Program-made: the position numbers and the translations under genes
Part shown: positions 908-54,638 of the stretch, piece by piece
Layout of the letters: every line of letters begins with the position of its first letter
How positions within the stretch are numbered: position 1 is the first letter of the stretch
Notes under the pieces: generated by a model
Databases searched by the model: none
The model's input: only the letters and a program-made list of their open reading frames with translations
What the model was told of the DNA's origin: nothing
Assembly: GCA_041389625.1 (NCBI GenBank)
Contig: JAWKRM010000003.1
Span: 101,636-165,635 of the forward strand
From: Polyangiales bacterium
GTDB lineage: Bacteria; Myxococcota_A; Polyangia; Polyangiales; JAWKRM01
DNA: 64,000 bases
Direction: 5' to 3'

Positions 908-1576
908 GTGCAGGTTCGCGCCGCGATCTTCGACATGGATGGGCTCCTCGTGGACACGGAGCCACTCTGGCGTCGCGTGGAGACGCGCGTGTTCGCCGAG
1001 CTCGGAGTGCACCTCACCGATGCCCTGTGCGAATCCACCAAGGGGCTCCGCATCGAGGAGGTGGTGGCGCACTGGCATTCGGTGTGCCCGTGGCAATCCC
1101 CGAGTGTGCCGGCGGTGGTTGAGCGAATCGTCGACGAGATGCTCGAACGCATTCGGACGGAGGCGACCCCCAAACCGGGCGTCCGCCATGCCATCGATCT
1201 CGCGCGGGCGATCCCCATGCGTCTCGCGCTCGCCTCCTCGTCGCACACGCGTCTCATCCGCGCCGTGCTCGAGCGCCTGGAGCTCGTCGATGCCTTCGAA
1301 GTGGTCTGCTCGGGGGAGCATGAACCCCACGGCAAGCCGCACCCCGGGATCTTCCTCACGGCGGCGTCGCGGCTTGGAGTCGAAGCGCGGGCCTGCGTCG
1401 TGTTCGAAGACTCCATCGCGGGCGTCATCGCCGGAAAGGCGGCGCGCATGCGGGTTGTGGCCATTCCCGAGTCTCCGTCGCCCGCCTTCGCCGTGGCCGA
1501 CGTGGTGCGTGCGTCGCTGCTCGAGGTGCGTGCGGGGGACCTGACGGGTGACCCCGACGCGCCGGGTGCCGTCTAG
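908..1576 (+). CDS. HAD-superfamily phosphatase (sugar-phosphatase / beta-phosphoglucomutase-like)
   Basis: GTG start lies 12 nt after the previous stop. Motif I is FDMDGLLVDTE, followed later by LASSS and EDSIAGVIAGKAA, as in HAD-IA hydrolases. Confidence 0.8.
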   Translation: MQVRAAIFDMDGLLVDTEPLWRRVETRVFAELGVHLTDALCESTKGLRIEEVVAHWHSVCPWQSPSVPAVVERIVDEMLERIRTEATPKPGVRHAIDLARAIPMRLALASSSHTRLIRAVLERLELVDAFEVVCSGEHEPHGKPHPGIFLTAASRLGVEARACVVFEDSIAGVIAGKAARMRVVAIPESPSPAFAVADVVRASLLEVRAGDLTGDPDAPGAV

Positions 1577-1644
1577 GGGCGAATTGCGCGGTGGATCGGC
1601 CGTCCAATTCGCGGTCGGGCCTGTTACACTCCATCCCCTCGCGT

Positions 1645-6115: not shown

Positions 6116-9100
6116 CGCGTTTCCTTCGGAGCTGTGCGTCCGTCGAGCGATGCCTATGCGCGACGGTGCTTGTGTGTTCGTTCGTTGTGCTGGGTGGAAC
6201 GGCGCATGCGGACACCCCCCGCGAGTTCCAGCGTCCAGCGAACGAGCGCTCGGTTCACATGGACGAAGAAGGCGAATCGACGAAGAAGGTCCGCCCCAAG
6301 GCCGCGCATCCAGAGAACCTCGAGTCGTCGATCTACCTTCGTGAACGCACGGACACCCTCGGCCAAGCCGCGCGTGACTACCAAAACGCGAACCTCGAGA
6401 AGATGCTCCGCGAGCGCGAGAACCTCGTGCGCGTACGCCGAAAGAGCGCCGTGTTGCTCCTCGAGGAGTTCATTCGCGTGGAGCCCGAGTCGGCCGCCGA
6501 GATGCCCGACGCCCTCCTGCGCCTGGCGGAATTGCGCTGGGAGACGGCGCGCGACGTCTACCTGCGAGCATTCGCCGAGTGGCAGCGGGGCCCGCGCGGC
6601 GCCCGCGGCCCCGAACCGAAGCCCGACTACCGCGCCTGCATTGCGCTCTACGACCGCCTCCTCGAGAAACACAAGAAGTTCGAACGCTACGACCTCGTGC
6701 TCTACATGAAGGCCTTTGCGCTTCTTGAGCTGAACGACACGGACGGCGCGCTCGCTCTCTACGGCCGCCTTCGAACCGAGTTCCCGAAATCGCGTTTCGT
6801 GCCCGACGCGCACATGGCGTTCGCCGAGGCCGCGTTCACGGGCAGCTACGACTACGCGACGGCCCTCTCCGAGTACGAGAAGGTTCTCGAGTATCCCGAC
6901 AGCGGTCTCTTCGACATCGCGCTTTTCAAGAGTGCCTGGTGTTTGTGGAAACTCGGCCGCACGAAGGATGCGGCCACGCGCTTCCGGCGCGTCCTGGACC
7001 TGGGTAACGAGCGCGCAAACCTCAGCTCGGATCAGCGGCGGCGCCTCGAGGAGCTCCAAACCGAAGCCCTCGACTATCTGATCCAAGTCTTCACGGAAGA
7101 CGAACGGAATACGGCGGCCGACGTTTTCGGTTTCCTTGAGGAGATCGGCGGCGAAAAGTACGCGTACCGCGTGCTCGTCCGCCTCTCGGACACCTACGTC
7201 GGGCAGGCGCGTTACGACCGCGCCGTTCAAGCGTATCGACTGCTCCTCGAGATGGACCCCGCGTCGCCCGAGGCGCCGAACTACCAGCACGAAATCGCAG
7301 AGAGCTACGCGAGCCTCGAAGATGATCCGAATACCGTGAAGGCACTCACGGACCTCGCGGCGAAGTACCGCAAGGGCTCACCCTGGGCCGTGGCGCAGTC
7401 CGATCCCGAGGTGGTGGCCGCCGCCGCGAAGATGGCGGAGCGCACCGTGCGTCGCCGCGCGATGCGATGGCACGAGCTGGGTCAGCGGGAAAAGCAGCGC
7501 ACGAAGTTCGAGCGGGCCGTCGAGCTCTACGGAGTCTACCTCGAGTACTTCGGTTCGGACCCGCACGCGTACGAGGTGGAGTTCTATCGCGCAGAAGTTC
7601 TCTTTCACCGCCTCGATCGTTACCCGGAGGCCGGTGCCGCATACCTGTCGGCCGCGCGTCGAAACCCGAAGGGCGAATACACCCGCGATGCGCTCTATAA
7701 CGCCATCGGCGCCTTCGAGCGGGTCCGCGAAGCCGAGCTCAAGAACTGCGCAAAGCCCGCCGCCGGCGCCAAGTCGACCTGCGCCGAAACGGAGAACGAC
7801 AAGAGCTTCTCCCAGGCCATCGAGCTCTATGTGCAGCTCTTCCCGAACGACCCCGATCTGCCCGAAATCCTCTTCCGTCAGGGCAAGCTCTACTACGATC
7901 GCGGCGTCTACGACCCCGCCGTGCGCCTCTGGGGCCAGCTCCTCGAGCGGTTCCCGAAGAGCGAGTACGCCGGGCCCGCGGGCGACCTCATCCTCGACAG
8001 CTTCAATCGCGCCGCGGACTACGGGAACATCGAGAAGTGGGCGCGCCGCCTCAAGAAGGCCGACGCGTTCCAATCGCCCGATGCACAACATCGCCTCGAT
8101 GGGCTCATTCTCCAATCCGTCTTCAAGAACGGGGAACAGCTCGCCGAGAAGGGTGAACATGCGAAGGCGGCGGACGCCTATTTCTCCGCCGCCGAAGAGT
8201 TCCCGAAGGACGAACGCGCGAAGAAGGCCTACGTCAACGCGGGCATCGAACGGCAGCGCGCCGGTGATCTTGCCGGCGCGGCGAGTGCCTACGATCGCGT
8301 GATCGAGAAGTATCCCGGTTCGGAGGAGGGCGCCCAGGCCGCGTGGTCGGGCGCACAGATGTACGAGTCCATTGCGCAGTTCTCGGATGCGGCGAAGTAC
8401 TACGAGGCCTACGCCGCGAAGTTTCCGAAGCGCCCGAAGGCCACGGATGCGGCGTACAACGCGGTGCTCCTCCGCGTGACCGCGGGCGAGAACACGGCCG
8501 CGGTGCGCAACGGGCAGCGCTACCTCGACGCGCACCCGAGCGGTGACGGAGCGGATGAAGTCACATTCCTGATGGGCCGCGCCCACGAAGCGGCTGAAGA
8601 TTGGCCCGCCGCGGCGCGCGTGTACCGGAAGTTCGTCGAACGAACCAAGCACGCCGACCGCAAGGTCGAGGCGCAGACGCGACTCGGAAAGGTGCTTCTC
8701 AAGTCCGGCGATCAGCGTGGCGCGAACCAGGCGTTCGACGCGGCGGCAAAGGCAGCGAAGGGTCGCCGCGGCGGCAAGCTCAAGGAGGGTCGCTACTACT
8801 CCGCCGAGGCGCGGTACCTCCAGGGCGACCTCGTGCTCGCCGAGTACGAGCAGATTCAGATCGCGGGCGATACGGCGGGCCTCCGCGGGCGCCTTCAGAA
8901 AAAATCCCAGCTCCTCAAGGAGGCGGCGACCATCTACTCCGACGTGGTGGGTTACCGCGTCGCCGAGTGGGTGACGGCGTCGCTGTACCAGATCGGCCGC
9001 TCCTACGAGCTCTTTGCGAATTCGCTTCGTGAGGCGCCCATTCCCGAGGGGCTCAACGAGGAGGAACAGCAGGCCTACCGTGACCAGCTCGGCATGTTCA

Positions 9101-38489: not shown

Positions 38490-38804
38490 CTAGAAGCCTC
38501 CGTCGTCCCCGGCGTCGTCGTCGTCGCCGGCGTCGGGGCGACACGCCGCGCCGGCGTTCTGAAACTCCCATGCCCCATCGATACACAAGTACTCGGAGCC
38601 AACGTCGGCGCACGGGGGCGGGGGCGATTCCCCGCAGACGGACCATGGCTTCGTGTTCGGGCATCCCTCGAACGGGGGGCAGTCCTTAGAACCGGCGTCC
38701 GAAGCGCGTTCGTGGCAGGCGGGCAAGAGCGCCCCGACGCTGAACAAGAGGCAAAGACCAATCGCGTACGAGCGGAGCGCGCGCGGGCTGGAGTTGATCG
38801 TCAT
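38490..38804 (-). CDS. small Cys-rich lipoprotein
   Basis: 104 aa. The ATG at 38804 has AAGGA 11 nt upstream. The lipobox is ALLPAC. The mature part has 7 further Cys and an acidic tail. A sigma-54-type promoter lies ~50 nt upstream. Confidence 0.6.
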   Translation of the reverse strand: MTINSSPRALRSYAIGLCLLFSVGALLPACHERASDAGSKDCPPFEGCPNTKPWSVCGESPPPPCADVGSEYLCIDGAWEFQNAGAACRPDAGDDDDAGDDGGF

Positions 38805-38853
38805 TCGGGTTCAATCCTTTGCAGGTCGGTAAGCGTGATTGGGCTCGGAGTGT

Positions 38854-38869
38854 AGCAAGCCGCGTGCCG
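38854..38869 (-). promoter_or_regulatory. sigma-54 (-24/-12) type promoter
   Basis: The minus strand reads CGGCACG-CGGC-TTGCT against the consensus TGGCACG-N4-TTGCW. GG and GC have the correct spacing. The -12 GC sits about 50 nt upstream of the ATG at 38804. Confidence 0.6.
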
Positions 38870-38943
38870 AGCGAGTGGCCGAAGTCCTCGGCCCGTTCGC
38901 GAACGCATGCGTGCCAGATTTCGCCGCGCCTGTGGTCAGCGAG

Positions 38944-39831
38944 CTACTCCCCGCAGGGAATCGCCTTCGTGCCCACGGCCACGTCGTCGACGTAGGTGGT
39001 GGCGGGGCCCGGCGCGAGGGAACCGCTCGACCAGGTATAGGGGATGGGTAGGAAGAGGTGCTTGTACCCGCCCGGCACGTCGAAGGTGGCCGGTCCGCCG
39101 TTGCCCGTGGCCGGCGACGTCTGCATGTAGAGTGATTCCGTTCCGCCCGCTGGCTTGATGTAGACGGTCTGTTGGGGGGGATCGAAACGGACCTCCGCGC
39201 GGAAGCAGAACCACTTGTTGAGCGGAAGCCCGGCGCCGGCCGTGTCGTGGGCGTAGCTGGTGTTGTCGCCGGTGCCGTCGTAGCGCTCGAAGTAGAAGCC
39301 CGCCCCCGCCTGCGTGCCGGTTCGGCCGAGGGCGTAGTAGCTGATCGCGCCCGAGTTGTCGTTCGGGCGAGCGGTTTCGCTCTCAAAGTCGGCGATATCG
39401 AAATGGACGATGGCATCGTCGTCGGTGCTTTCGTCGTCCGCGATGAAGTAGTACGCACGAAAGTAGAGCGTGCCGTTGTCGATCGCGCTTGAGAGAACGC
39501 CCTTGAGTGCGGAGGTGCCCGGCGCACCATCCACCTTGCCGCGCGCCGCCCCGCTGCCGCTGTGCACGGGCTCTGGCGCGGTGACGCGAATGGCGGGGGT
39601 CTCGGGTGCACCCGTCGGTAGCCAAGCGGACAGCGCGTCATCCTCGAATCCATCGCAGAACACGAGACCGTCGAGGGAGTCACAGTCCAACGGGTTTCCG
39701 CCGGCGCACGCGTCTCCTTCGCACGCGACGGCGCCGTCGGCGGTCGCGCGATCGAAGCCGAAGTCGAAGCAGCCTGCCAAGCAGCTCGCGGCGAGGGCGA
39801 AACACACGCCACGCACGGGCGCACGGTGCAT
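38944..39831 (-). CDS. lipoprotein with a concanavalin-A-like (LamG / lectin-glucanase fold) domain
   Basis: Start is ATG 39831 or 39864. The lipobox is SCLAGC. After a Cys-rich linker comes the typical FCDGFEDDALSAWL.. opening of jelly-roll domains, followed by a beta-rich body. Confidence 0.65.
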   Translation of the reverse strand: MHRAPVRGVCFALAASCLAGCFDFGFDRATADGAVACEGDACAGGNPLDCDSLDGLVFCDGFEDDALSAWLPTGAPETPAIRVTAPEPVHSGSGAARGKVDGAPGTSALKGVLSSAIDNGTLYFRAYYFIADDESTDDDAIVHFDIADFESETARPNDNSGAISYYALGRTGTQAGAGFYFERYDGTGDNTSYAHDTAGAGLPLNKWFCFRAEVRFDPPQQTVYIKPAGGTESLYMQTSPATGNGGPATFDVPGGYKHLFLPIPYTWSSGSLAPGPATTYVDDVAVGTKAIPCGE

Positions 39832-39960
39832 CGGGAACGTCGCGTGGTGGGAGCTCCGATGCATGCGCGAGGAAGCCTACCACGCGTCCTCGCCGCGTCG
39901 TGCGAGCCGCTTCTCCCCATTGGAATTCTCAAGTACGCTGGTCGGCATTCCGCGAACCGC

Positions 39961-41262
39961 ATGAGCAAGCCTTCGAACGATCCCGAGACGCTTGAACAGC
40001 CCGATTTGGTCCGCCTTTTTGGGGTCGTCACCAGGGCGTGTCCCTCCGTGCGATGGACCGATTCCGGGGGCGAGCACGAGTTCATCGTCGAATCGAACCG
40101 CGCCGTCATCGGCTCGGGGGGCGGCGTGGACGTTCAGCTCGCCGATCCACTCGTCTCACGGCTCCATGCGGAGTTCGAGCTTGGCGACAACGGGCTCTGG
40201 GTGACCGACCTCGGAAGCAAGAATGGCTCGTACGTGAACGGCGTTCGCGTGCGTGGCGCACGGATTCCTCCGAATGGGGTGGTGCAACTCGGATCGACGG
40301 AGCTGCGCGTGCACTATGGCGCCCCTCCCATGCCCGTCGATGTCTGGCCCGAAGAGGGGTTCGGGCAACTTGTGGGCAAGTCCGTGCTGATGCGCGAGCT
40401 TTTCGCGAAGCTCGCTCGCATCGCGAAGCTCGATGACGGCGTCTTGATCCAGGGCGAGACGGGCACGGGCAAAGAACTTGTCGCGCGCGCGATTCACGAC
40501 CATTCACCGCGCGCCCAAGCGCCATTCGCAGTGGTCGATTGTGCGGCCCTCCCTGGCAACCTGCTCGAGGTCGAACTGTTTGGGCATGCGAGGGGAGCGT
40601 TCACGGGCGCGTCGGACGCACGGGAGGGCACGATCGAGGCGGCGGCGGGCGGCACGGTGCTCCTCGACGAGATTGGTGAGCTTCCGCTCGAGCTCCAACC
40701 GAAGCTCCTGCGTGTCATCGAGTCCCATTCGCTGCGGCGTCTCGGCGAAACGGAGTTCCGGGAAGTCGACGTTCGCTTCATTGCGGCGACGCACCGGAAC
40801 CTCCGGGAGATGGTCAACAACGGTACGTTTCGTGAAGACCTGTACTTCCGGATCGCGGTATTCCCCGTCCTGATCCCGCCGCTTCGTGATCGCGTCGAAG
40901 ACATCCCATTGCTGATCAAGAAGATGTTCCCGAATCAGCCCGAAGGAACGATTCCGCCCGAACTCATGCGCGTGCTGCGCGAGCGGCCGTGGTCCGGCAA
41001 CGTGCGTGAGCTTCGCAATTTCGTGAATCGAGCCGCCGTGTTCGGTGCTTCGGAGGCGGCGGAGACGATGCAGCGACCCCGGAAGGTCGAAACGAGCGAA
41101 ATGAACTTCTCAGAAGCCCGTACGGAGATGATTCACGCCTTCGAGCGTCAGTACGTCAAGGAACTCCTCGAACGGCATGGGCACAATGTTACGGCGGCGG
41201 CGGAGGCGGCTGGGATCACCCGCGTTTGGCTCCACAAGCTGGTCCGCAAACACTCGCTGTAG
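39961..41262 (+). CDS. sigma-54-dependent transcriptional activator with an N-terminal FHA domain
   Basis: ATG at 39961. The FHA region reads VIGSGGGVDVQLADPLVSRLHAEFELGDNGLWVTDLGSKNGSYVNG. The AAA+ core has GETGTGKE and ELFGHARGAFTGA. The C-terminal Fis-type HTH reads GHNVTAAAEAAGITRVWLHKLVRKH. Confidence 0.9.
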   Translation: MSKPSNDPETLEQPDLVRLFGVVTRACPSVRWTDSGGEHEFIVESNRAVIGSGGGVDVQLADPLVSRLHAEFELGDNGLWVTDLGSKNGSYVNGVRVRGARIPPNGVVQLGSTELRVHYGAPPMPVDVWPEEGFGQLVGKSVLMRELFAKLARIAKLDDGVLIQGETGTGKELVARAIHDHSPRAQAPFAVVDCAALPGNLLEVELFGHARGAFTGASDAREGTIEAAAGGTVLLDEIGELPLELQPKLLRVIESHSLRRLGETEFREVDVRFIAATHRNLREMVNNGTFREDLYFRIAVFPVLIPPLRDRVEDIPLLIKKMFPNQPEGTIPPELMRVLRERPWSGNVRELRNFVNRAAVFGASEAAETMQRPRKVETSEMNFSEARTEMIHAFERQYVKELLERHGHNVTAAAEAAGITRVWLHKLVRKHSL

Positions 41263-42782
41263 CGCGCTGGCCTGCTAAAATAACACCCGCTTTGTCCGCA
41301 CCATCCGACGTCCGCGGCGTGGGTGTCGGCTCCGGCCGATCCTACGAACTGCTTCTCAAGATCGCTTCGGGCGGCATGGCGACGGTCTATGTGGGGCGTG
41401 CGGTGGATGCCGCTCCCAACGCGGAGCTCGTGACCGCGAAGCACGTCGCCATCAAGGTGTGTCACCGACACCTCCTCGAGGATGCCGACTTCCGGCGGAT
41501 GTTTCTGAACGAAGCCGCGCTGGCGGCGCGCATCCGGCACCCGAACGTTGTCCCGACGTTGGATGTGGGCGAAGGCAACGCGCTCTTCCTCGTGATGGCG
41601 TACGTGGAGGGGGACCGGGTATCGACCCTCTCCCGCGCTGCGGCGAAGGGCGGGCACCGATTCCCCGTGGATGTCGCCGTTCGCGTTCTGCTCGACGCAC
41701 TGGCGGGGCTCCACGAAGCGCACGAGCTCAAGGGTGAGGACGGTTCGCCGCTACACATCGTTCATCGGGACGCGAGCCCACAGAACATCATCGTGGGCGT
41801 GGATGGCGTCGCGAGGATTCTCGACTTCGGCGTCGCCAAGATATTGGCGCAGCCCGGCACGACGAAGGAAGGCAACATCAAGGGCAAGCTCGGGTACATG
41901 CCGCCCGAGCAGCTCCACTACCGCAAGGTTGGCCGGTTCACGGACGTGTACGCCGCGGGGGTTGTCCTCTGGGAAATGCTGGCCGGTCGACGCCTATTCA
42001 AAGGCGACACGGAGGGAGAAACGGTGGCCCTCGTCCTGCGAGGGGCGGTGCCTGCGCTTGGCGAGTTTCGTCCGGACGTGTCCGCGGAGCTCGAGGCCGT
42101 GATTCGAAGGGCGGTGCACCGCGATCAACGCGAACGGTTTCCATCCGCCCGTGAGTTCGCATTGGCACTCGAGGCGTGCGGCGCGCCCGTGGCCACCCAC
42201 GAGGAGGTGGCGATGTACGTCCAGCGAATGGTGGGGACGACGCTCGAACGGCGGCGTGCGGCGCTCGCCGAACTCGAGCTCAACGGCGGCGCATTGGGCC
42301 GTGTCGGTGGCGTGGAGCCCCATCCCGAGTCGAACGCGGAGGACGGCGTTGACCTGGATGCGAAGACAACCGTGTCACCCCAGGCCGAGTCGTCGACGGA
42401 CCTTCGTGCCCCGTCGGCGGGTTCGAGGCGATTCGCGTGGGGTCTTGGTGCCGTGGTCCTCGTTCTCGGGTTCGGGGTCCTCGCGTTCTGGTGGAATGCG
42501 CAGGGGCCGGCAGCTCCCGTGGAATCGAACGTTGGTGCCGTGGTGGATCGCGCAGCGCCCGAGCAGGCGAATGCGCCCGCGGCACCTTCAACGCCGGTTC
42601 GGGTGGCGGCGGAACCGCCTCCATCGACGGTCGGCGCAAGCGACGATGCGGACACCACGGAGGCGTCAAAGCCTTCCGACGCCCCGAAAAACGCAGTACG
42701 CTCGAGCCGCCGCCGTGAAAACACACGTCCCGACAGACGAAAGAAGTCGCAGCGGCAGGAGTGGTGGCCGGACGACATCTGA
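41226..42782 (+). CDS. Ser/Thr protein kinase with one TM segment and a Pro/Ala-rich extracytoplasmic tail
   Basis: Kinase motifs seen are IASGGMATVY, AIKV, HRDASPQNI, DFGVAK and GYMPPEQ. The TM segment is GLGAVVLVLGFGVLAFWW. The start is uncertain: TTG 41226 overlaps the activator gene, and the alternatives are TTG 41292 and GTG 41319. Confidence 0.85.
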   Translation: MAPQAGPQTLAVARWPAKITPALSAPSDVRGVGVGSGRSYELLLKIASGGMATVYVGRAVDAAPNAELVTAKHVAIKVCHRHLLEDADFRRMFLNEAALAARIRHPNVVPTLDVGEGNALFLVMAYVEGDRVSTLSRAAAKGGHRFPVDVAVRVLLDALAGLHEAHELKGEDGSPLHIVHRDASPQNIIVGVDGVARILDFGVAKILAQPGTTKEGNIKGKLGYMPPEQLHYRKVGRFTDVYAAGVVLWEMLAGRRLFKGDTEGETVALVLRGAVPALGEFRPDVSAELEAVIRRAVHRDQRERFPSAREFALALEACGAPVATHEEVAMYVQRMVGTTLERRRAALAELELNGGALGRVGGVEPHPESNAEDGVDLDAKTTVSPQAESSTDLRAPSAGSRRFAWGLGAVVLVLGFGVLAFWWNAQGPAAPVESNVGAVVDRAAPEQANAPAAPSTPVRVAAEPPPSTVGASDDADTTEASKPSDAPKNAVRSSRRRENTRPDRRKKSQRQEWWPDDI

Positions 42783-43851
42783 TCGGTCGCTCGTCGCTTC
42801 CGGCGGCGCGCTACGGCGACTCGGGCCGACTGTCTTCCTGACCGTTCTCGTCTCCCTCTCCGCGGCACTCTCGAGCTCCGCCCGAGCGCAGTCCAGCGGG
42901 GAAGATGCGGCGGACAGCGGGCGAGCGGGGGCGGATAGCGCAGACGAGGGGCGGCGTCACTTTGCGTCGGGGATGGCGTTCTACAGCGCGCGCAACTTCG
43001 AGGACGCGCTCAACGAGTTTCGGGCGTCGGTGACGGCGTACCCATCGCCCAACGCACAGCTTGCCGTTGCGCGTTGCCTACGGGACATGGGGCGGCTCCC
43101 GGAGGCTGTTCTCGAGTATGAGAAGGCCGTCGTCCTCGCGAGCGAACGAATCGCGGAACAGCCGAACTATCGGCAAGCACGGGACGCGGCGCAGGAGGAA
43201 CTGCGCCTCGTGGCGTCGAGCGTTGGGCGCGTTCGCATCGTCCTTGACCCGCGGCCCTCGGACCTCGAGATGACGCTGAACGGGGAGCCACTTCCCGCGG
43301 CGGCGCTCGACCGCGCCTGGCCGGTGCTTCCAGGGCGGTTTGAGCTCCTCGTTCGGGCGAACGGCTACCGCGAGGGGCGGGTTGTTGCCGAAGTCCGCGC
43401 GGGGGCGGAGGCGCCCGCCGTCGTGGCGCTGGTCCCCGAGCATGGCGAGGTCGCACCGACGGTTCCGGTCGATCCGGCCGCGGACGACGGGGCGCCGGAA
43501 GACGAGGTTACGCCCGGGGGCAGCGCCACCTTGGAGTACCTCGCGTGGGGCGCGACGGGGCTCGCCGCCGCGAGCGCCGTCGTCTTTGTCATTTCCTATG
43601 TGCTCGCCTCGGGGAAGCAGGACGACTTCACGAAGAGCTGCATCGACGCCGTGTGCCCCGCGTCGCGTCGCGACGACCTTCGATCCACGGGCAACACCTA
43701 CGAGTCGATGACGAACATCTCGTTCGGCGTCGGCCTCGTCTCCGTCGCCGCGGCGGTGACGTTCTTCCTCCTCGACTGGGCGGACGCGACACCGGGGGAT
43801 GCCGAGCTTTCGGCACGCCCCGGTGACATTGGCCTCGGCGTGCGTTTCTAG
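42715..43851 (+). CDS. exported TPR / PEGA-like domain protein with C-terminal TM segments
   Basis: The signal-like segment is LGPTVFLTVLVSLSAALSSSARA/QS. A TPR-like region (FEDALNEFRASVTAYPSPNAQLAVARCLRDMGRLPEAVLEYEKAV) is followed by a PEGA-like segment (VGRVRIVLDPRPSDLEMTLNGEP..GRFELLVRANGYREGRVV). The only in-frame start near the signal is GTG 42715, 68 nt inside the kinase gene. Confidence 0.6.
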   Translation: MKTHVPTDERSRSGRSGGRTTSDRSLVASGGALRRLGPTVFLTVLVSLSAALSSSARAQSSGEDAADSGRAGADSADEGRRHFASGMAFYSARNFEDALNEFRASVTAYPSPNAQLAVARCLRDMGRLPEAVLEYEKAVVLASERIAEQPNYRQARDAAQEELRLVASSVGRVRIVLDPRPSDLEMTLNGEPLPAAALDRAWPVLPGRFELLVRANGYREGRVVAEVRAGAEAPAVVALVPEHGEVAPTVPVDPAADDGAPEDEVTPGGSATLEYLAWGATGLAAASAVVFVISYVLASGKQDDFTKSCIDAVCPASRRDDLRSTGNTYESMTNISFGVGLVSVAAAVTFFLLDWADATPGDAELSARPGDIGLGVRF

Positions 43852-45359
43852 ATCAGCTCGGCAAGCGGGCCGTTCGCATACATGTACTTCGGTTCGCCGA
43901 AGGTCTGATCCGTGGCGCCCATGGACTGCAGCACCGTGGTGAAGACCTGGCCGCTCGAAGCGACCTTGCCGCTCCATTTGAGCGAGTTGGGGTCCGCCTG
44001 GCGGTAGGGATTGAAATCGACGTAGCGACCCGTGCGGAAGTACGTTCCGCCGCCGAGCAGCATGAACGGGATGTCCCGCTGTTCCTGGTGGGCGCCGCCG
44101 CAGGAGGCTTCCGTGGTGTAGAGCACCAGGGAGTTGTCGAGCATGGGCCGGCCGCCTTCGAGGAACGAGGTGTCGTTGAGCTGCTCCGCGATGCTCTTCG
44201 CGAGGCCGAGTCGCCACTTGCGCGTGGCGCGCATGTTTCCAAGCCACTTTGCATAACCCGTCGAGTCGCCGAGACCGAAACCCTCGCTCGGGTCCGGCGC
44301 CTGCTTTCCGTATCGCTGGATCTCGTGGCCGAGGCTGTGACCTTCGGCGCCGACCGTGCTCTTGATCGGCGCCATGGTGTCGCCGATCTGCAGGCCAGCC
44401 ACGTTCGTGATGCCGCACCGCATCGCTGCGACGATCAGGTTCGCGAGGATGGGCCCCGTCTTGTCGTGGGGCACCTGATAGTAGTCGGGGGTGTTGAGCC
44501 GGTCCGACGTCGGCGGCTGTGCGCACATCACCGACGGTTCGATGGTCATGATCTGCTTTTCAATGTCCGACAGGTGATCGAGGTGGGCGTCGACGATGGC
44601 CTTGTCGGAGGTGCCGAGCTTCTTGCTGAACTCCGCGTAGCCGTCCATGACGGTGTTGAGCAGGTTCTTGCGCGCCTGTTGCGCGCGGGTCGCCGCGGGA
44701 TCCGTGGTGGAGCCTCCCGTGGGGAGGTTCTTGAAATCGCGATTGAACGCGTCGAGCGGGTTGTACTCGCCTTCGGAGCGCGTGCATCGGGAGCCCAGGG
44801 TGCCGGTGTAGAAGGGCGTGGTGTAGAGCGAGCCGGGCACCGTGTAGTGGAGCGGCGAACTGCGCCCACCGAGTCGCGCCGCGAGGCGTTGCGCGACCAC
44901 GTAGTCGATGGACGGGCCGTTGGCGTACACGCTCTCGACGCCGCGATTGCCGATCGTGGCCTGCGTCAGACAGGTGGCATTGCTCGAATAGTGCTCGCTG
45001 TTGTACGCGCACTCGGCATACCCGGCCGCGCTGTCGATGCCGCGGAGCACGAGCATCTTCGACTCGAGCGCGGTGCCGCGGAAATCGACGTGTGCCTGCC
45101 CGAACTGCCACCCGGCCATCGGCAGCCAGTCGTCGATCTTCGGTCCCAAGTCGTTTCCGCTGCGCCGGTTGCCGACATCGTCAATGGCCATCGTTTCGCC
45201 ACCCTCGTGGTAGACGACCACGAAGCGTTTGAGCGGCCCGCCCGCGGCCCACGCTCGCTCATGGGTGAACTCAAGCAGCGGCAACCCGAGCGTGAATCCG
45301 CCCACCCCGCGTAGGAACGCGCGCCTGCCACTGTTGCGATTTGCGTTGAAGTGCGACAC
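43848..45359 (-). CDS. Tat-signal exported protein, DUF1552-like
   Basis: The N-terminus NSGRRAFLRGVGGFTLGL is a textbook twin-arginine motif. 503 aa. It is paired with a DUF1592-type gene upstream, as in the Planctomycete/Myxobacterial two-gene module. The family name is from memory. Confidence 0.7.
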   Translation of the reverse strand: MSHFNANRNSGRRAFLRGVGGFTLGLPLLEFTHERAWAAGGPLKRFVVVYHEGGETMAIDDVGNRRSGNDLGPKIDDWLPMAGWQFGQAHVDFRGTALESKMLVLRGIDSAAGYAECAYNSEHYSSNATCLTQATIGNRGVESVYANGPSIDYVVAQRLAARLGGRSSPLHYTVPGSLYTTPFYTGTLGSRCTRSEGEYNPLDAFNRDFKNLPTGGSTTDPAATRAQQARKNLLNTVMDGYAEFSKKLGTSDKAIVDAHLDHLSDIEKQIMTIEPSVMCAQPPTSDRLNTPDYYQVPHDKTGPILANLIVAAMRCGITNVAGLQIGDTMAPIKSTVGAEGHSLGHEIQRYGKQAPDPSEGFGLGDSTGYAKWLGNMRATRKWRLGLAKSIAEQLNDTSFLEGGRPMLDNSLVLYTTEASCGGAHQEQRDIPFMLLGGGTYFRTGRYVDFNPYRQADPNSLKWSGKVASSGQVFTTVLQSMGATDQTFGEPKYMYANGPLAELI

Positions 45360-45392: not shown

Positions 45393-47156
45393 TTATTCGG
45401 CGTGATTGATGTAGCGGAAGACGTCGCTCGCCACGAAGCCGAGGAGCACTTCACGCAGGCTGCCCGGCCGGTCCGTATCGAGCCGGATCGTCTGGAGGCT
45501 GCACACGTCGAGGGGGGCCGGATTTCGGCGGAGGGCGTGCTGGAACCACGCCTCGGCGGCGCACTCGCGAAGCCAGTCCGTTTCGAGCAGCCGCGAGCTG
45601 AGCTCGACCGCGTCCTTCACGGGGCCGTTCGCGAGGCCCGCGTACACGAGCTCTCCGCTTGAATCGACGGGCGCCCCGGACCAGTTCTCCGCGTCGCCCT
45701 GCCACCGGCCCAGCGCGTCGTAGTGCTCGAAGGCGAACCCGATGGGATTGATGCCAGCGTGGCAGCCGTTGCAGAACGGTTCCGCGGTGAGCGATTCCGT
45801 CTTCTCGCGCACGCTCTGGACGGCGGCGCCACCGGGCGCGGAGGATGCCACCGGGGTGTTGTCGACCGTCGGGGGCGGCGGAGTCGGGGGTTGGCAGAGC
45901 AGGTGCTTGCGCACAAACACGCCGCGCTGGATCGGCGATGAATCCGTGTCCGACGCGTGGACCGCGAGGAACCCGGCACGCGTGAGCACGCCGGCGCGCT
46001 GGGTCGTGTCCAGGTCCACCCACGCCCACTGGTTTGCCCCCGTGGGGCCGCCCTCGACGCCGTAGAGGGCAGCGAGTGGGCCGTTGACGTAGGCGCGCGG
46101 ATCCGTGAAGAGCGTCTCGATGGATCCGTCCTTTTCGAACATGACGTAGTCCATGAACGCGTCCATCTCCGTGCGCATGTAGCCACCGAGCTGTGGCGTG
46201 AAGTTGTCGAAGCGCGAGGCGTCCTTGTTGAGATCGTCGACCGGCGCGTTCAGGTGTTCGCCATCCATGTCGAGCCAGCTCGTCAGGTAGCTCCGGAGGA
46301 CGGGCTTGGCGCGATCGTCCGCGAGCATTCGCGTCGCTTGGGAGATGACGCCATCCACGGTGTCGAGTTCTCCGCCCGCCGCCGCGGCGAGGAGCGCGTC
46401 ATCCGGGAGGCTGTCCCACAGGAAGTAGGAAAGGCGCTGCGCCATCTCGTACTCCGCGAGCTGCTTCGTCGTGCTGCCGCTGCCGTCGTCGACACCCGCC
46501 GAGTAGAAATAGAGAAACTGCGGGGCCTGGAGAACCGCCTGCACAACGTACGCGAGTCGCTCCGACTGGGTGCTGCCCGACGGAGCAGCATTCCACGCTG
46601 CGCCGAGCCAGGTGCTCTCGGCGCTCGACAGCGGATGTCGAAATGCGCGTTCCGCGAACTTCGCGAGGAACTCCTGGGCGCAAGCGGTGTTGGATGTGCC
46701 GAGGTCGCACGAGACGTACGCGTTCATCCATGTCGACTGTGCCGGCACGAGATCCGCGGCAATCTGGTTCCACTTCTGAACGGCGAGCAGCGAGGGTGCA
46801 TCGTCGTCCTTGGTCAGGTTCACGTCGATGGTCGGTTCGCCGAGAAGCTCGCGAACGGAGTTCTCGTACTGCCGTTCGGTCAGTCGATAGATTCGTGTCG
46901 CGCCGGTTTGGGGCTCGGCGTCGTTGCATTCGACGAGGCGCGGCTCGCCGTCTTCGCCTGGGACGACAACGGGCCCGTCCGGGATGCCGTCGCCGTCGAG
47001 GTCGCCCGGTACGCCGCTGCCGCGGGGGCCAGCCGGTTCGTCCCCCTTGTCCGCGATGATTCCCGTGCAGCCTGCCACCGCAATCCACATGGCCGCCGCG
47101 AGCACACGGGATGTTCCAATCCGGGGACCCAATTCGTTTCGAGCACCGCCCACCAT
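45393..47156 (-). CDS. lipoprotein of the DUF1587/1595/1592/1588/1585 multidomain family, with a CxxCH motif
   Basis: Lipobox IAVAGC. Landmarks are YRLTERQYENSVRELLG, FLAKFAERAFRHPL, VVQAVLQAPQFLYF and FCNGCHAGINPIGFAFEHYDALGRW. Family names are from memory. Confidence 0.7.
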   Translation of the reverse strand: MVGGARNELGPRIGTSRVLAAAMWIAVAGCTGIIADKGDEPAGPRGSGVPGDLDGDGIPDGPVVVPGEDGEPRLVECNDAEPQTGATRIYRLTERQYENSVRELLGEPTIDVNLTKDDDAPSLLAVQKWNQIAADLVPAQSTWMNAYVSCDLGTSNTACAQEFLAKFAERAFRHPLSSAESTWLGAAWNAAPSGSTQSERLAYVVQAVLQAPQFLYFYSAGVDDGSGSTTKQLAEYEMAQRLSYFLWDSLPDDALLAAAAGGELDTVDGVISQATRMLADDRAKPVLRSYLTSWLDMDGEHLNAPVDDLNKDASRFDNFTPQLGGYMRTEMDAFMDYVMFEKDGSIETLFTDPRAYVNGPLAALYGVEGGPTGANQWAWVDLDTTQRAGVLTRAGFLAVHASDTDSSPIQRGVFVRKHLLCQPPTPPPPTVDNTPVASSAPGGAAVQSVREKTESLTAEPFCNGCHAGINPIGFAFEHYDALGRWQGDAENWSGAPVDSSGELVYAGLANGPVKDAVELSSRLLETDWLRECAAEAWFQHALRRNPAPLDVCSLQTIRLDTDRPGSLREVLLGFVASDVFRYINHAE

Positions 47157-47454
47157 GGGATGTGGTTGAGCAAGAACCGGGCCTCATCAGAATGTCGCGA
47201 AATTCGGCGGAATCGACCCCGCTCGGGCCCTGGAACCCGCCCCGCCGCCCGCGTCGCGCGCGCCAACTGCAAACACGTGGTTTTCGCTCGCCCGGAAGCC
47301 GTCCGAGACACGGCACCCGCCGAGGTTCACCAAGCGCGCCGGAGTGTAAAGCGGCGATTACGGCCTTCGCGTTCGCGGACCGGCAAACCTGGGGAGTTTT
47401 CGGTGCACGGTGCCTGGTCCGGTTGTTGCTCACTCGAAGCGCATGCATGTGGGG

Positions 47455-48606
47455 ATGAGGACCTGGTGGTTTGGGATGTGGCACGCGGAATGGCAGTTCG
47501 GCGGGTTGGTGATCGCCGCGATGCTCTCGCTCATGGTTGCGCCGGTGGCTGGCTGCGACGGGAGCATCGCGGGGGGGGAAGAGGCATCGAACGGCGCGCC
47601 GTTCGAAGGTGGCGGCGACGGGACGTCGAACCGCGACCCCGATGATCTCGCGATGCCGTCGCCGACTGGGCCCGATGGCGCCACGCTGCCGAACTCGGGC
47701 GACCCCGACGGCAGCATGTCAACGGGGATCGAAGACGCGGGCGTGGGTACCGAACCGATGGACGCGGCCGAACCGGTGGACCCCATGAATCCCACGGACC
47801 CCACGGACCCGCCGGGTCCGAAACCGTGGCCCGATGCCACCAACACGGGCGTGCCGAGCGGGACGGCGCTTACGCCGTCCGGAGGCATGACCATCACAAC
47901 CAGCGGTCAAGTCATCGACAAGCTGGACGTCTCTGGAACCATCACGGTCAAGGCGAACAACGTCACGATTCAGAACACGCGCATTCGTGTGACGAACAAG
48001 ATCGCCATCGAGCTCGCGTCCGGATACAGCAATCTCACCATCAAGGACGTGACCATCGAAGGGACTGACACCTCAACCGGCTACCCACAAAACGCTGCCA
48101 TCCGGATCCCGTCGGCCGCGAAGGCCGACCCGACGGTCACCATCCAGCGGCTCAATCTCTCGGGCTACGGCTTCGGAATTTTTCTCGAGGACGGAAGTGG
48201 TTTGATCGAAGACTCCTATCTTCACGACATGCACAACCAAGGCGGGAAGGGTCGCGACGCCATCGAGATGTGGGACAACCACGACTTCGTCATTCGGCAC
48301 AACGTTGTGGAGATGGACGGCGACAGCGCCAACAGCGCCATCAAGTTCCCGTGCGACGTGTCGTGGAACACCGGCGGTGACAACGTCCTCGTCGAGAACA
48401 ACATTCTCGCCGGTGGCGGATTCGCACTCATCGCGGGCTACTGCCCGGGTCAGCCGCAGCAGTGGACGAACACCCGCGTGGTCGGCAACCACTTCAGTAC
48501 CAAGTTCGCGAAGAACTGCGGGTTCTATGGACCGGCGAGCTGGGTGCAATCGTCGCTGGCGAGCGGCAATGTTTGGCACGAAACGGGCAAGCCGCTGCAG
48601 CTCTAG
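47455..48606 (+). CDS. lipoprotein with a right-handed parallel beta-helix (pectate-lyase-like) domain
   Basis: ATG at 47455 (alternatives 47443 and 47410). The lipobox is APVAGC. A Pro/Asp-rich linker precedes repeated turns (NNVTIQNTRIRV, SNLTIKDVTIEG, VTIQRLNLSG, GLIEDSYLHD, FVIRHNVVEM, VLVENNILAG, TRVVGNHF). GC is visibly low. Confidence 0.75.
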   Translation: MRTWWFGMWHAEWQFGGLVIAAMLSLMVAPVAGCDGSIAGGEEASNGAPFEGGGDGTSNRDPDDLAMPSPTGPDGATLPNSGDPDGSMSTGIEDAGVGTEPMDAAEPVDPMNPTDPTDPPGPKPWPDATNTGVPSGTALTPSGGMTITTSGQVIDKLDVSGTITVKANNVTIQNTRIRVTNKIAIELASGYSNLTIKDVTIEGTDTSTGYPQNAAIRIPSAAKADPTVTIQRLNLSGYGFGIFLEDGSGLIEDSYLHDMHNQGGKGRDAIEMWDNHDFVIRHNVVEMDGDSANSAIKFPCDVSWNTGGDNVLVENNILAGGGFALIAGYCPGQPQQWTNTRVVGNHFSTKFAKNCGFYGPASWVQSSLASGNVWHETGKPLQL

Positions 48607-53411: not shown

Positions 53412-54638
53412 TTGACGAACGTTGAACGAATCAAAAAGGTTGCCGTTGCCCTTCGGTACGCGGCGTTCGTGGCGGGATGCGCGCATCTCGTGGTGTTCGT
53501 CGCCGCATGCGACGAACAAAGCTCCGGCGGGCTGTCGATTTCATTCGACCCGGAAAGCCTTGCCGATCAAACCGAAGTCATCGAACTGAACCTTGTCGAC
53601 CGCTGCGATGATTCCACGGGCGGAACTGCGCTTGCGCAGGATCCCAGAAGCAGTGGACGCTCTACCGCGACGGCGCGTTGCCTGATATCGGCAACCTGTC
53701 AAATGGCAGCTACGCGTTCTACGCGCGTGGTTTCGACAAATCGTGCCGCCTGGTTTCGAGTGGATGCCAGGCATTCTCGGTGAAGGCATCAAGCTCGCCA
53801 AACGTCGACGTCGTCCTGGGCATGGCCAAGTGTCCCGTGGGGGGCGCGTGTGGAACGCTCGCATGCAGCCCGCTTGAGGATGGCAGGTCGGATGGCGAAA
53901 CGGACGCCGCGTCGGACGGCGGCATCGACGCTTCACACGACGCGGGCAATCAGCCCACCGTCGACTGGAGTCTAGAGCTCGGGGCGGTGTGCAACGTGAG
54001 CCTTTACGGTTTCTCGTTGTGCAACGCCTCGGCGGCAACGATCACCGTTGCGGCCGCGGGACAGCGCGGAGCGTTCTACGCCGATCAGCTCGTGACCATG
54101 AACGCGGGAACGTCGCTCGAAATCGAGTTCACGGCGACCATGGACATGCCGTCGGCGGAGAAAGTCGCAGACGGAATCGTCTTTGTGATTCGTGAGAAGG
54201 ACGCTCCTGAACTTGGCGCTGGTGCCGGTTGGCTGGGGTACGAGGGCCCTCGTGGGCGAGACCATGTACGACAGCGTGACTCCAAGCATTGGCGTGGAGA
54301 TGGACACGTTTGTCGGTGGGAATGACCCCGGCGCGGGTCAACATGTCGCCGTGCTTTCCAATGGCGACGTCGCGAACCACATCACCTGGGACCCTGCGCC
54401 GTTCGAGTTCACCGCCGTTCCAGAGACCCACGTCTGGATCGACTACGACGGGAACACCAACACGCTCACCGCGTACTTTGCCATGACCGACACCAAGCCC
54501 GCGGAGCCGCAGCTGACGGCGACCCTCGACATTCCGGGTGACGTGGGAAGCCAGGTCTATCTCGGGTTTACGGGTTCGACCGGGCAGTTCTTCGCCCGCC
54601 AGCGCATCACCGACTTTTCGTTCCGCGTCTGGGATTGA
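53412..54638 (+). pseudogene. lipoprotein with a C-terminal L-type (legume-like) lectin domain, interrupted by two frameshifts (ORF pieces 53412.., 53678.., 54192..)
   Basis: TTG start with lipobox VFVAAC. The sense moves from frame 0 to frame 2 at the CCC run 53643-53645, and back to frame 0 at the CCC run 54247-54249. Lectin-like motifs are ADGIVFVI, GWLGYEG, SIGVEMDTF..NDP, HVWIDYDG and YLGFTGSTG. Confidence 0.7.

Follow-up and report, generated by a model that had tools for sequence, protein, structure and literature searches.

The 64-kb stretch of DNA from a Polyangiales bacterium that is analysed here (contig JAWKRM010000003.1; GC content 66.7%), referred to as the window, contains a small minus-strand gene that is preceded, near 38.85 kb, by an element resembling the -24/-12 promoters of sigma-54 RNA polymerase. 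The gene lies close to one encoding a sigma-54 activator, i.e., an enhancer-binding protein (EBP) with an FHA domain. The element is situated in the gap between two co-oriented genes, namely, an upstream gene for a 306-aa lipoprotein and a downstream gene for a 104-aa Cys-rich protein. On the other side of the 306-aa gene, three plus-strand genes encode the FHA-type EBP, a Ser/Thr protein kinase, and a tetratricopeptide repeat (TPR) protein. The element is probably a genuine sigma-54 promoter, as its position and its weight-matrix score suggest, and adjacency makes its control by the neighbouring EBP plausible. The coordinates of all features are collected in Table 1.

The -24/-12 element and its surroundings

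Read on the minus strand, positions 38869-38854 give CGGCACGCGGCTTGCT, which agrees with the consensus TGGCACG-N4-TTGCW at 11 of 12 positions and keeps the canonical GG-N10-GC register exactly (GG at 38868-38867, GC at 38856-38855). The sole deviation is a C in place of the T at the first base, where C occurs in 12% of 152 curated Desulfovibrionales sites, and no other segment of the window matches the consensus with at most one mismatch. The -12 C lies 51 nt upstream of the ATG at 38804, with the sequence AAGGA in between. A first-pass annotation of this DNA had described a near-consensus sigma-54 motif with only its first base off, placed in the gap between the 306-aa and 104-aa genes, with the -12 part ~50 nt before the start codon of the small gene and AAGGA as the ribosome site of that gene; all of this was confirmed. 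From the coordinates and the usual sigma-54 geometry, transcription is predicted to start near 38843, which would give a leader of ~39 nt. The gene for sigma-54 itself, rpoN, is not in the window, and the intact EBP with its GAFTGA motif is taken as a proxy.

The 139-nt gap that holds the element was also searched for other signals. Consensus scans of the gap revealed neither a sigma-70-like promoter nor a T-tailed terminator. An RNA element in the gap was considered as well and rejected, as the gap has no match in Rfam and the fold of the region is not unusual (z = -0.45). Directly upstream of the -24 part, the minimum-free-energy fold contains a GC-rich hairpin that lacks a T tract (Table 1) and could possibly mark the end of the upstream transcript. 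In the 39865-39960 gap, no sigma-54 site of at least 4 bits was found for either the 306-aa gene or the EBP operon.

The 104-aa open reading frame (ORF) looks like a real gene. It is credible as such because the GC content at third codon positions (GC3) is 0.84 in its frame vs 0.59-0.65 for overlapping ORFs, and because four substitutions and a 6-nt indel that preserves the reading frame separate it from its only homologue, a strain variant of 96% identity. The predicted protein has a signal-peptide-like N-terminus, eight Cys residues (six of them past the putative cleavage site), and an acidic tail. It has no Pfam or NCBIfam match, and an exhaustive phmmer search for remote homologues returned repeat-driven matches only, with the cysteines unaligned. 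The lipobox rule, as in PROSITE PS51257, is [LVI][ASTVI][GAS]C. The signal of the 104-aa protein ends in ...FSVGALLPAC, i.e., with a Pro at -2, and does not conform to this rule. Export of the protein is likely, and its status as a lipoprotein is uncertain because of the atypical Pro in L-P-A-C. In the earlier description of the gene product as a small Cys-rich lipoprotein, "small Cys-rich" stands, whereas "lipoprotein" does not have the backing of a regular lipobox.

The 306-aa protein is 100% identical to NCBI entry R3A78_02865. It has a good lipobox (LAGC), whereas neither Pfam (up to E = 10) nor NCBIfam nor the PDB sequences yielded a match to it, and the label "LamG-like", which it had been given before, stays tentative. 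Its relatives are few and distant (27-38% identity) and are encoded in unrelated contexts; relatives of 32% and 27% identity have the motifs FCDGFEDxA and YVDDVAxG in common with it. The AlphaFold models of the protein have predicted local distance difference test (pLDDT) values of 30 and 33.

Table 1. Positions of the features discussed in the text, in window coordinates.
Feature	Positions	Strand	Basis and remarks
104-aa ORF, predicted orphan exported Cys-rich protein	38490..38804	-	Reading frame with high GC3
Intergenic gap holding the candidate promoter	38805..38943	.	139 nt, between the co-oriented 306-aa and 104-aa ORFs
Shine-Dalgarno-like AAGGA	38815..38819	-	Read from the sequence; 10 nt before the ATG
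Predicted transcription start	38843	-	12 nt downstream of the -12 C; usual sigma-54 geometry
Sigma-54 type -24/-12 element CGGCACG-CGGC-TTGCT	38854..38869	-	Sequence; weight-matrix score 13.44 bits
GC-rich hairpin GGCCGAGGACTTCGGCC, no T tract	38877..38893	-	Minimum-free-energy fold; directly upstream of -24
Candidate enhancer cluster near -57 to -64	38895..38916	-	Orphan TGGCACG, palindromes, GCGTTCGCGAAC
Two GGGAAYCGC copies, weak candidate upstream activating sequences	38956-38964, 39018-39026	+	At ~-117 and ~-179; 62 nt apart
306-aa lipoprotein gene	38944..39864	-	Lipobox LAGC; alternative start 39831; all-beta by prediction; GC3 0.84
FHA-type EBP gene	39961..41262	+	Pfam: FHA, AAA+ sigma-54 interaction domain, HTH_8
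Ser/Thr protein kinase gene	41226..42782	+	Pfam Pkinase, E = 3e-31; membrane segment at the C-terminus; starts before the EBP gene ends (41262)
TPR protein gene	42715..43851	+	Pfam TPR_16; signal-like and C-terminal hydrophobic segments; starts before the kinase gene ends (42782)
Second sigma-54-like site TGAGGCCCGGTTCTTGCTC	47168..47186	-	14.3 bits; promoter-competent
Third sigma-54-like site CCTGGTCCGGTTGTTGCTC	47413..47431	+	14.27 bits; promoter-competent

Chance match or promoter

In DNA as rich in GC as this, the element could be a chance match; in that case, the small gene would owe its transcript to a promoter of the sigma-70 family that went unrecognised in the gap, or to read-through from the 306-aa gene. 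Several results weigh in this direction and against a sigma-54 promoter. As a bare motif with at most one mismatch, the element is expected 0.46 times per window, and at least one match that is as good was obtained in 37% of shuffled windows; with up to two mismatches, nine matches were found vs 8.9 expected. The sites were further scored with a weight matrix built from 152 aligned sigma-54 19-mers of RegPrecise (S2 table of PMC12316311). The score of the element, rank 4 in the window, corresponds to the 14th percentile of the 152 curated sites, although these come from Desulfovibrionales, which are AT-richer, and the matrix penalises the GC-rich spacer; the first base, as said, is off consensus. 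High genomic GC is noted to blur the recognition of sigma-54 sites (PMC12316311). Read-through is conceivable in that the two genes are co-oriented, only 139 nt apart, and not separated by a canonical terminator. Conservation does not help the case for a promoter either. The gap shows 0 substitutions relative to the sister strain L001, where 1.9 are expected (P = 0.15), and this identity carries no weight in a strain that is ~98.6% identical. No more distant orthologous loci, and thus no conserved orthologous promoter for comparison, were present in the databases searched, and the small gene and its upstream 306-aa neighbour are both orphans.

The assessment changes when the position of the element is taken into account. 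A rough, GC3-based gene map served to define promoter-competent positions, which are non-coding and have a gene of the same orientation beginning no more than 250 nt downstream. Because such positions make up only 4.8% of the strand positions, the positioned site is beyond chance whereas the bare sequence is not: about 0.02-0.04 matches with at most one mismatch are expected at promoter-competent positions. Three of the nine matches with up to two mismatches are promoter-competent (binomial estimate ~0.007). With the weight matrix, the promoter-competent scores in the window are 14.3, 14.27, and 13.44 bits, followed by 7.67 bits, i.e., after a gap of 6 bits. The four matches of at least 13.4 bits are all located in non-coding DNA, which accounts for 15% of the window, and three of the four are promoter-competent. 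Shuffling of the whole window yields 0.84 such matches on average; when the non-coding intervals are shuffled within themselves, 0.17 are expected, at least three are obtained with P = 0.0005, and four were reached in 0 of 2000 shuffles; high-scoring sigma-54 matches are thus significantly over-represented in the non-coding DNA. In addition, the geometry towards the ribosome site and the ATG is good, and an intact EBP is encoded next door. On the strength of the position-aware and weight-matrix statistics, the element is judged to be probably a genuine sigma-54 promoter. That it also serves the 104-aa gene is favoured as well, if slightly less firmly, and a chance match is considered rather unlikely.

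The element is not alone among sites of this quality. Both other promoter-competent matches, which the first-pass annotation had not mentioned, face outwards from one divergent gap at 47 kb and lie on the far side of the EBP operon. The 47.2-kb site precedes a DUF1592/1588/1595/1585 lipoprotein gene (45393-47156) that is followed by a DUF1552 gene (43848-45359), and the 47.4-kb site precedes a beta-helix lipoprotein gene (47443-48606); the sequence CCGGTTNTTGCTCA is common to the two. In both, the -12 GC lies 14 nt before the first ATG, which implies that their transcripts would be leaderless or that the true start codons are further in. Since these two equally good sites flank the operon's other side, the small gene is not the sole candidate target. 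All three promoter-competent sites (38.85, 47.2, and 47.4 kb) precede genes for exported or lipid-anchored proteins, and no comparable promoter-competent site was found in the rest of the window (~46 kb). The fourth high match, AACGGCAACCTTTTTGATT at 53429-53447 on the minus strand (14.2 bits, non-coding), is probably not a promoter: its -12 dinucleotide is GA, not GC, and it is directed towards the 3' terminus of a convergently transcribed gene. Elsewhere in the window, the plus-strand segment 34034-35542 holds a 502-aa Gly/Ala-rich ORF that starts with a signal-like sequence and matches no Pfam family, in a region that was mis-handled by the GC3-based gene caller.

The FHA-type activator and its proposed pairing with the promoter

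The first-pass annotation had assigned the plus-strand gene at 39961-41262 to an FHA-type sigma-54 activator, the only one in the window, encoded 1.1 kb away on the other strand. This assignment is correct, and the protein is intact. The AAA+ domain (PF00158, E = 1.4e-65) carries a Walker A motif, GETGTGK, at 165, the GAFTGA motif at 212, and a Walker B motif, DEIG, at 236. The Fis-type helix-turn-helix domain (PF02954) reaches 23.9 bits vs a cut-off of 22, at residues 439-469 of the long ORF. The FHA domain (PF00498) reaches 56 bits with E = 5.6e-15, and the YscD-type FHA-like family PF16697 matched too. Searches with tblastn and Pfam found no other sigma-54 activator in the window. The closest relatives of the EBP are at most 60% identical among anything found. 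Because each gene overlaps the next, the EBP, kinase, and TPR genes are regarded as one operon; for the TPR gene, the start codon at 42715 was the only in-frame one found. The stop codon of the operon overlaps that of the convergent DUF1552 gene (43848-43851).

The presence of a kinase gene in the same operon brings to mind phospho-signalling from the kinase to the FHA domain, which is plausible but not assured. In canonical FHA domains, G-R, S-x-x-H, and N-G are the residues that contact phosphate. Of these, the EBP retains S-R-L-H and N-G, and at residues about 50-53 has G-S in place of G-R. The G-S is found in the EBP and in all 13 aligned relatives, with Ser at this column at 90% or more of the 14-sequence alignment. 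Phospho-dependent binding is not assured since the canonical Arg is replaced by Ser, a point that counts against the proposed regulation, and the alignment suggests that the FHA family of this EBP may do without classical phosphothreonine binding. Two more distant FHA-EBPs, at the loci L040 and L023, have G-A instead of G-R.

Proximity had led the first-pass annotation to propose the EBP and the small gene as a regulator-target pair. The adjacency is confirmed, whereas the comparison with relatives does not support the pair. A Polyangiales metagenome-assembled genome, L003, also has the conserved EBP-kinase-TPR module (identities of 60% for the EBP, 48% for the kinase, and 43% for the TPR protein), and two short contigs, L006 and L007, encode FHA-EBPs of the same clade, with a Ser/Thr kinase gene downstream in L007. 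The left neighbours of the module are different from those in the window in each of these relatives: in L003 and L006 a glycosidase-like lipoprotein is encoded on the same strand, and in L007 an unrelated Cys-rich lipoprotein on the opposite strand. No weight-matrix match of at least 10.5 bits occurs in a usable position in L003-L005. For a broader co-localisation test, 80 metagenome loci of EBP relatives (L008-L087) were scanned with the same matrix at a threshold of at least 13.4 bits. The 47 loci with relatives that cover the FHA domain (368 kb) contain three sigma-54 matches vs 6.4 expected, whereas 32 control loci, with EBPs matched over the AAA+ domain only, contain 18 vs 4.8 expected, spread over 15 loci. 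The scan is thus able to detect co-localised promoters, and the comparison of the 47 with the 32 loci suggests that genes for FHA-type EBPs are usually not neighbours of their targets. Both the differing neighbours and the lack of an excess of matches speak against a pairing with the neighbouring EBP.

Two loci of distant FHA-EBPs are exceptions. In L040, a sigma-54-like site at 1566-1584 (plus strand) lies ~75 nt past the end of the FHA-EBP ORF and before a Ser/Thr kinase ORF that starts at 1634, an arrangement that hints at feedback from the EBP to the kinase. In L023, a sigma-54-like site at 6185-6203 (plus strand) lies about 140-160 nt past the FHA-EBP ORF and before a TetR-like gene.

These results open the way for another explanation, in which the sigma-54 promoter is real and is activated by a different EBP encoded elsewhere, while the FHA-EBP controls other genes, possibly those behind the 47-kb promoters or distant targets. 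Another EBP could serve the 38.85-kb promoter because myxobacteria carry many of them; Myxococcota are reported to have unusually many EBPs (PMC12316311), and some EBPs of Myxococcus xanthus, Nla28 among them, have many target promoters at dispersed places (PMC7910581). In contrast, the three strong sites within ~7 kb of the operon, far above the background at the loci of FHA relatives, look like a local regulon, the more so as the other ~46 kb have none, and the neighbouring FHA-EBP is the only EBP in 64 kb. In Desulfovibrio, moreover, co-localisation is the rule for one-component EBPs, with 10 of 13 such genes co-localised with sigma-54 promoters (PMC4641369). Control by a distant EBP is therefore rated as doubtful, and the pairing with the neighbouring EBP as plausible: adjacency argues for it, and the relatives do not. 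Given that the promoter is real, the chance that the neighbouring EBP activates it is put at about one half.

An EBP that acts on the 38.85-kb promoter would be expected to have an enhancer upstream, and no enhancer candidate at this promoter beats chance, which also counts against the proposed regulation. The inverted-repeat upstream activating sequences that had been proposed as targets of a search at 38.95-39.1 kb were looked for, and short-range inverted repeats were not found there. Closer to the promoter, an orphan TGGCACG at 38916-38910 (minus strand) lies 47 nt upstream of the true -24 element and has no -12 partner. It is overlapped by a perfect 10-nt palindrome, ACGCATGCGT, at 38912-38903, which is not enriched in the window. 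The segment GCGTTCGCGAAC at 38906-38895 (minus strand) contains the palindrome TTCGCGAA, which is over-represented window-wide, probably as a consequence of codon usage. Just two exact matches to the 12-mer GCGTTCGCGRAC are present in the window, at 38906-38895 (minus strand) and 47369-47380 (plus strand), both upstream of and co-oriented with sigma-54-like sites, with centres 32 and 42 nt before the GG. As a shared enhancer, the 12-mer is unsupported, since an ungapped match between the regions that is as good arises in 25% of shuffles. The two GGGAAYCGC copies listed in Table 1 are located inside the 3' end of the 306-aa gene and are not a peptide repeat, as they lie in different reading frames of that gene. 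The window has five GGGAAYCGC copies vs 3.3 expected, which is not significant; three of the five cluster within 38624-39026, the third being at 38624-38632 (minus strand).

Proposed mechanism and comparison with known systems

The preferred reading is that the small gene is transcribed from its own sigma-54 promoter under the control of the neighbouring EBP. Sigma-54 RNA polymerase would bind the -24/-12 element at 38869-38854 as a closed complex, and an EBP oligomer would bind upstream, the most likely single activator being the neighbouring FHA-EBP, with an activity that the membrane Ser/Thr kinase and the TPR protein of the same operon may set. The GAFTGA loop would then contact sigma-54, ATP hydrolysis would open the promoter, and the small gene would receive its own transcript from ~38843, which would be translated from the AAGGA ribosome site to yield an exported Cys-rich protein. 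In this scheme, the motif with its register and position, the intact EBP, and the enrichment of such sites in the non-coding DNA near the operon are observed, and the start, the dependence on sigma-54, the activator, the enhancer, and the signal from kinase to FHA domain are inferred. For this full chain, with the neighbouring FHA-EBP as the activator, we estimate a probability of roughly 0.35.

A further alternative, in which the element binds sigma-54 but is no promoter for the small gene and acts, with the hairpin and the orphan TGGCACG, as a regulatory roadblock or causes pausing where the 306-aa transcript ends, is very improbable. The half-site without a -12 partner and the GC hairpin directly upstream would fit it, and PMC7910581 cites genome-wide studies with many sigma-54 sites other than classical intergenic promoters, but neither hairpin nor fold is unusual, the orientation and spacing of the complete -24/-12 site are right for the 104-aa ORF, and no positive evidence speaks for a roadblock. 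An extension of the preferred reading would have the kinase/TPR/FHA-EBP operon control the promoters at 38.85, 47.18, and 47.42 kb, perhaps via GCGTTCGCGRAC, as an envelope-signalling island for exported proteins only; this is regarded as improbable.

The regulation described here is ordinary bacterial gene regulation and leaves the understanding of sigma-54 regulation unchanged. If confirmed, it would add a further case of a sigma-54 promoter with an FHA-type activator in a poorly sampled Polyangiales lineage and would provide a way into the regulation of a secreted orphan protein. The cluster of three promoters around the kinase/FHA-EBP operon, together with the non-canonical FHA domain, has somewhat more value than a single promoter. 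If the three-promoter picture were true, Ser/Thr kinase signalling of the eukaryote-like kind would be connected with the control of the cell envelope by sigma-54, and the widespread, uncharacterised DUF1592/DUF1552 gene pair would receive its first regulatory clue.

Several known systems can be compared with this locus. FHA-domain EBPs of M. xanthus and their sigma-54 regulon were reportedly described by Jelsbak, Givskov and Kaiser in PNAS in 2005. The window EBP resembles these proteins in its domain order (FHA, then AAA+ with GAFTGA, then a Fis-type helix-turn-helix domain), in its myxobacterial lineage, in the genomic link to Ser/Thr kinases, and in the presumed signalling from kinases into sigma-54 transcription. 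It differs from them in that it belongs to a Polyangiales clade with G-S in the FHA domain and has the kinase and a TPR protein in its own operon.

The element itself is closest to the experimentally dissected M. xanthus promoters that are activated by Nla28 or Nla6, for which the consensus is TGGCACG-N4-TTGC(T/A) with GG and GC being essential (PMC7910581). The consensus is the same, and upstream enhancer half-sites are to be expected in both. The Nla28/Nla6 promoters are mostly intragenic and have tandem 8-bp half-sites, CT(C/G)CG(C/G)AG (PMC7910581), whereas the window element is intergenic and has no recognisable repeats of the Nla28 type. The arrangement of an EBP gene beside opposite-strand sigma-54-type promoters, with the regulator assigned by adjacency, is known from Desulfovibrionales (PMC4641369). 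In that study, EBP genes and promoters stay together from genome to genome and the binding motifs could be reconstructed, whereas the co-localisation in the window is not conserved and is absent from the FHA-type relatives as a group. Lastly, sigma-54 has been presented as a controller of the bacterial exterior (Francke et al. 2011, PMC3162934), and the three window sites are in line with this theme in that they precede genes for exported or lipid-anchored proteins. The genes concerned, for an orphan Cys-rich protein, a DUF1592/DUF1552 pair, and a beta-helix lipoprotein, belong to families outside the classical sigma-54 targets.

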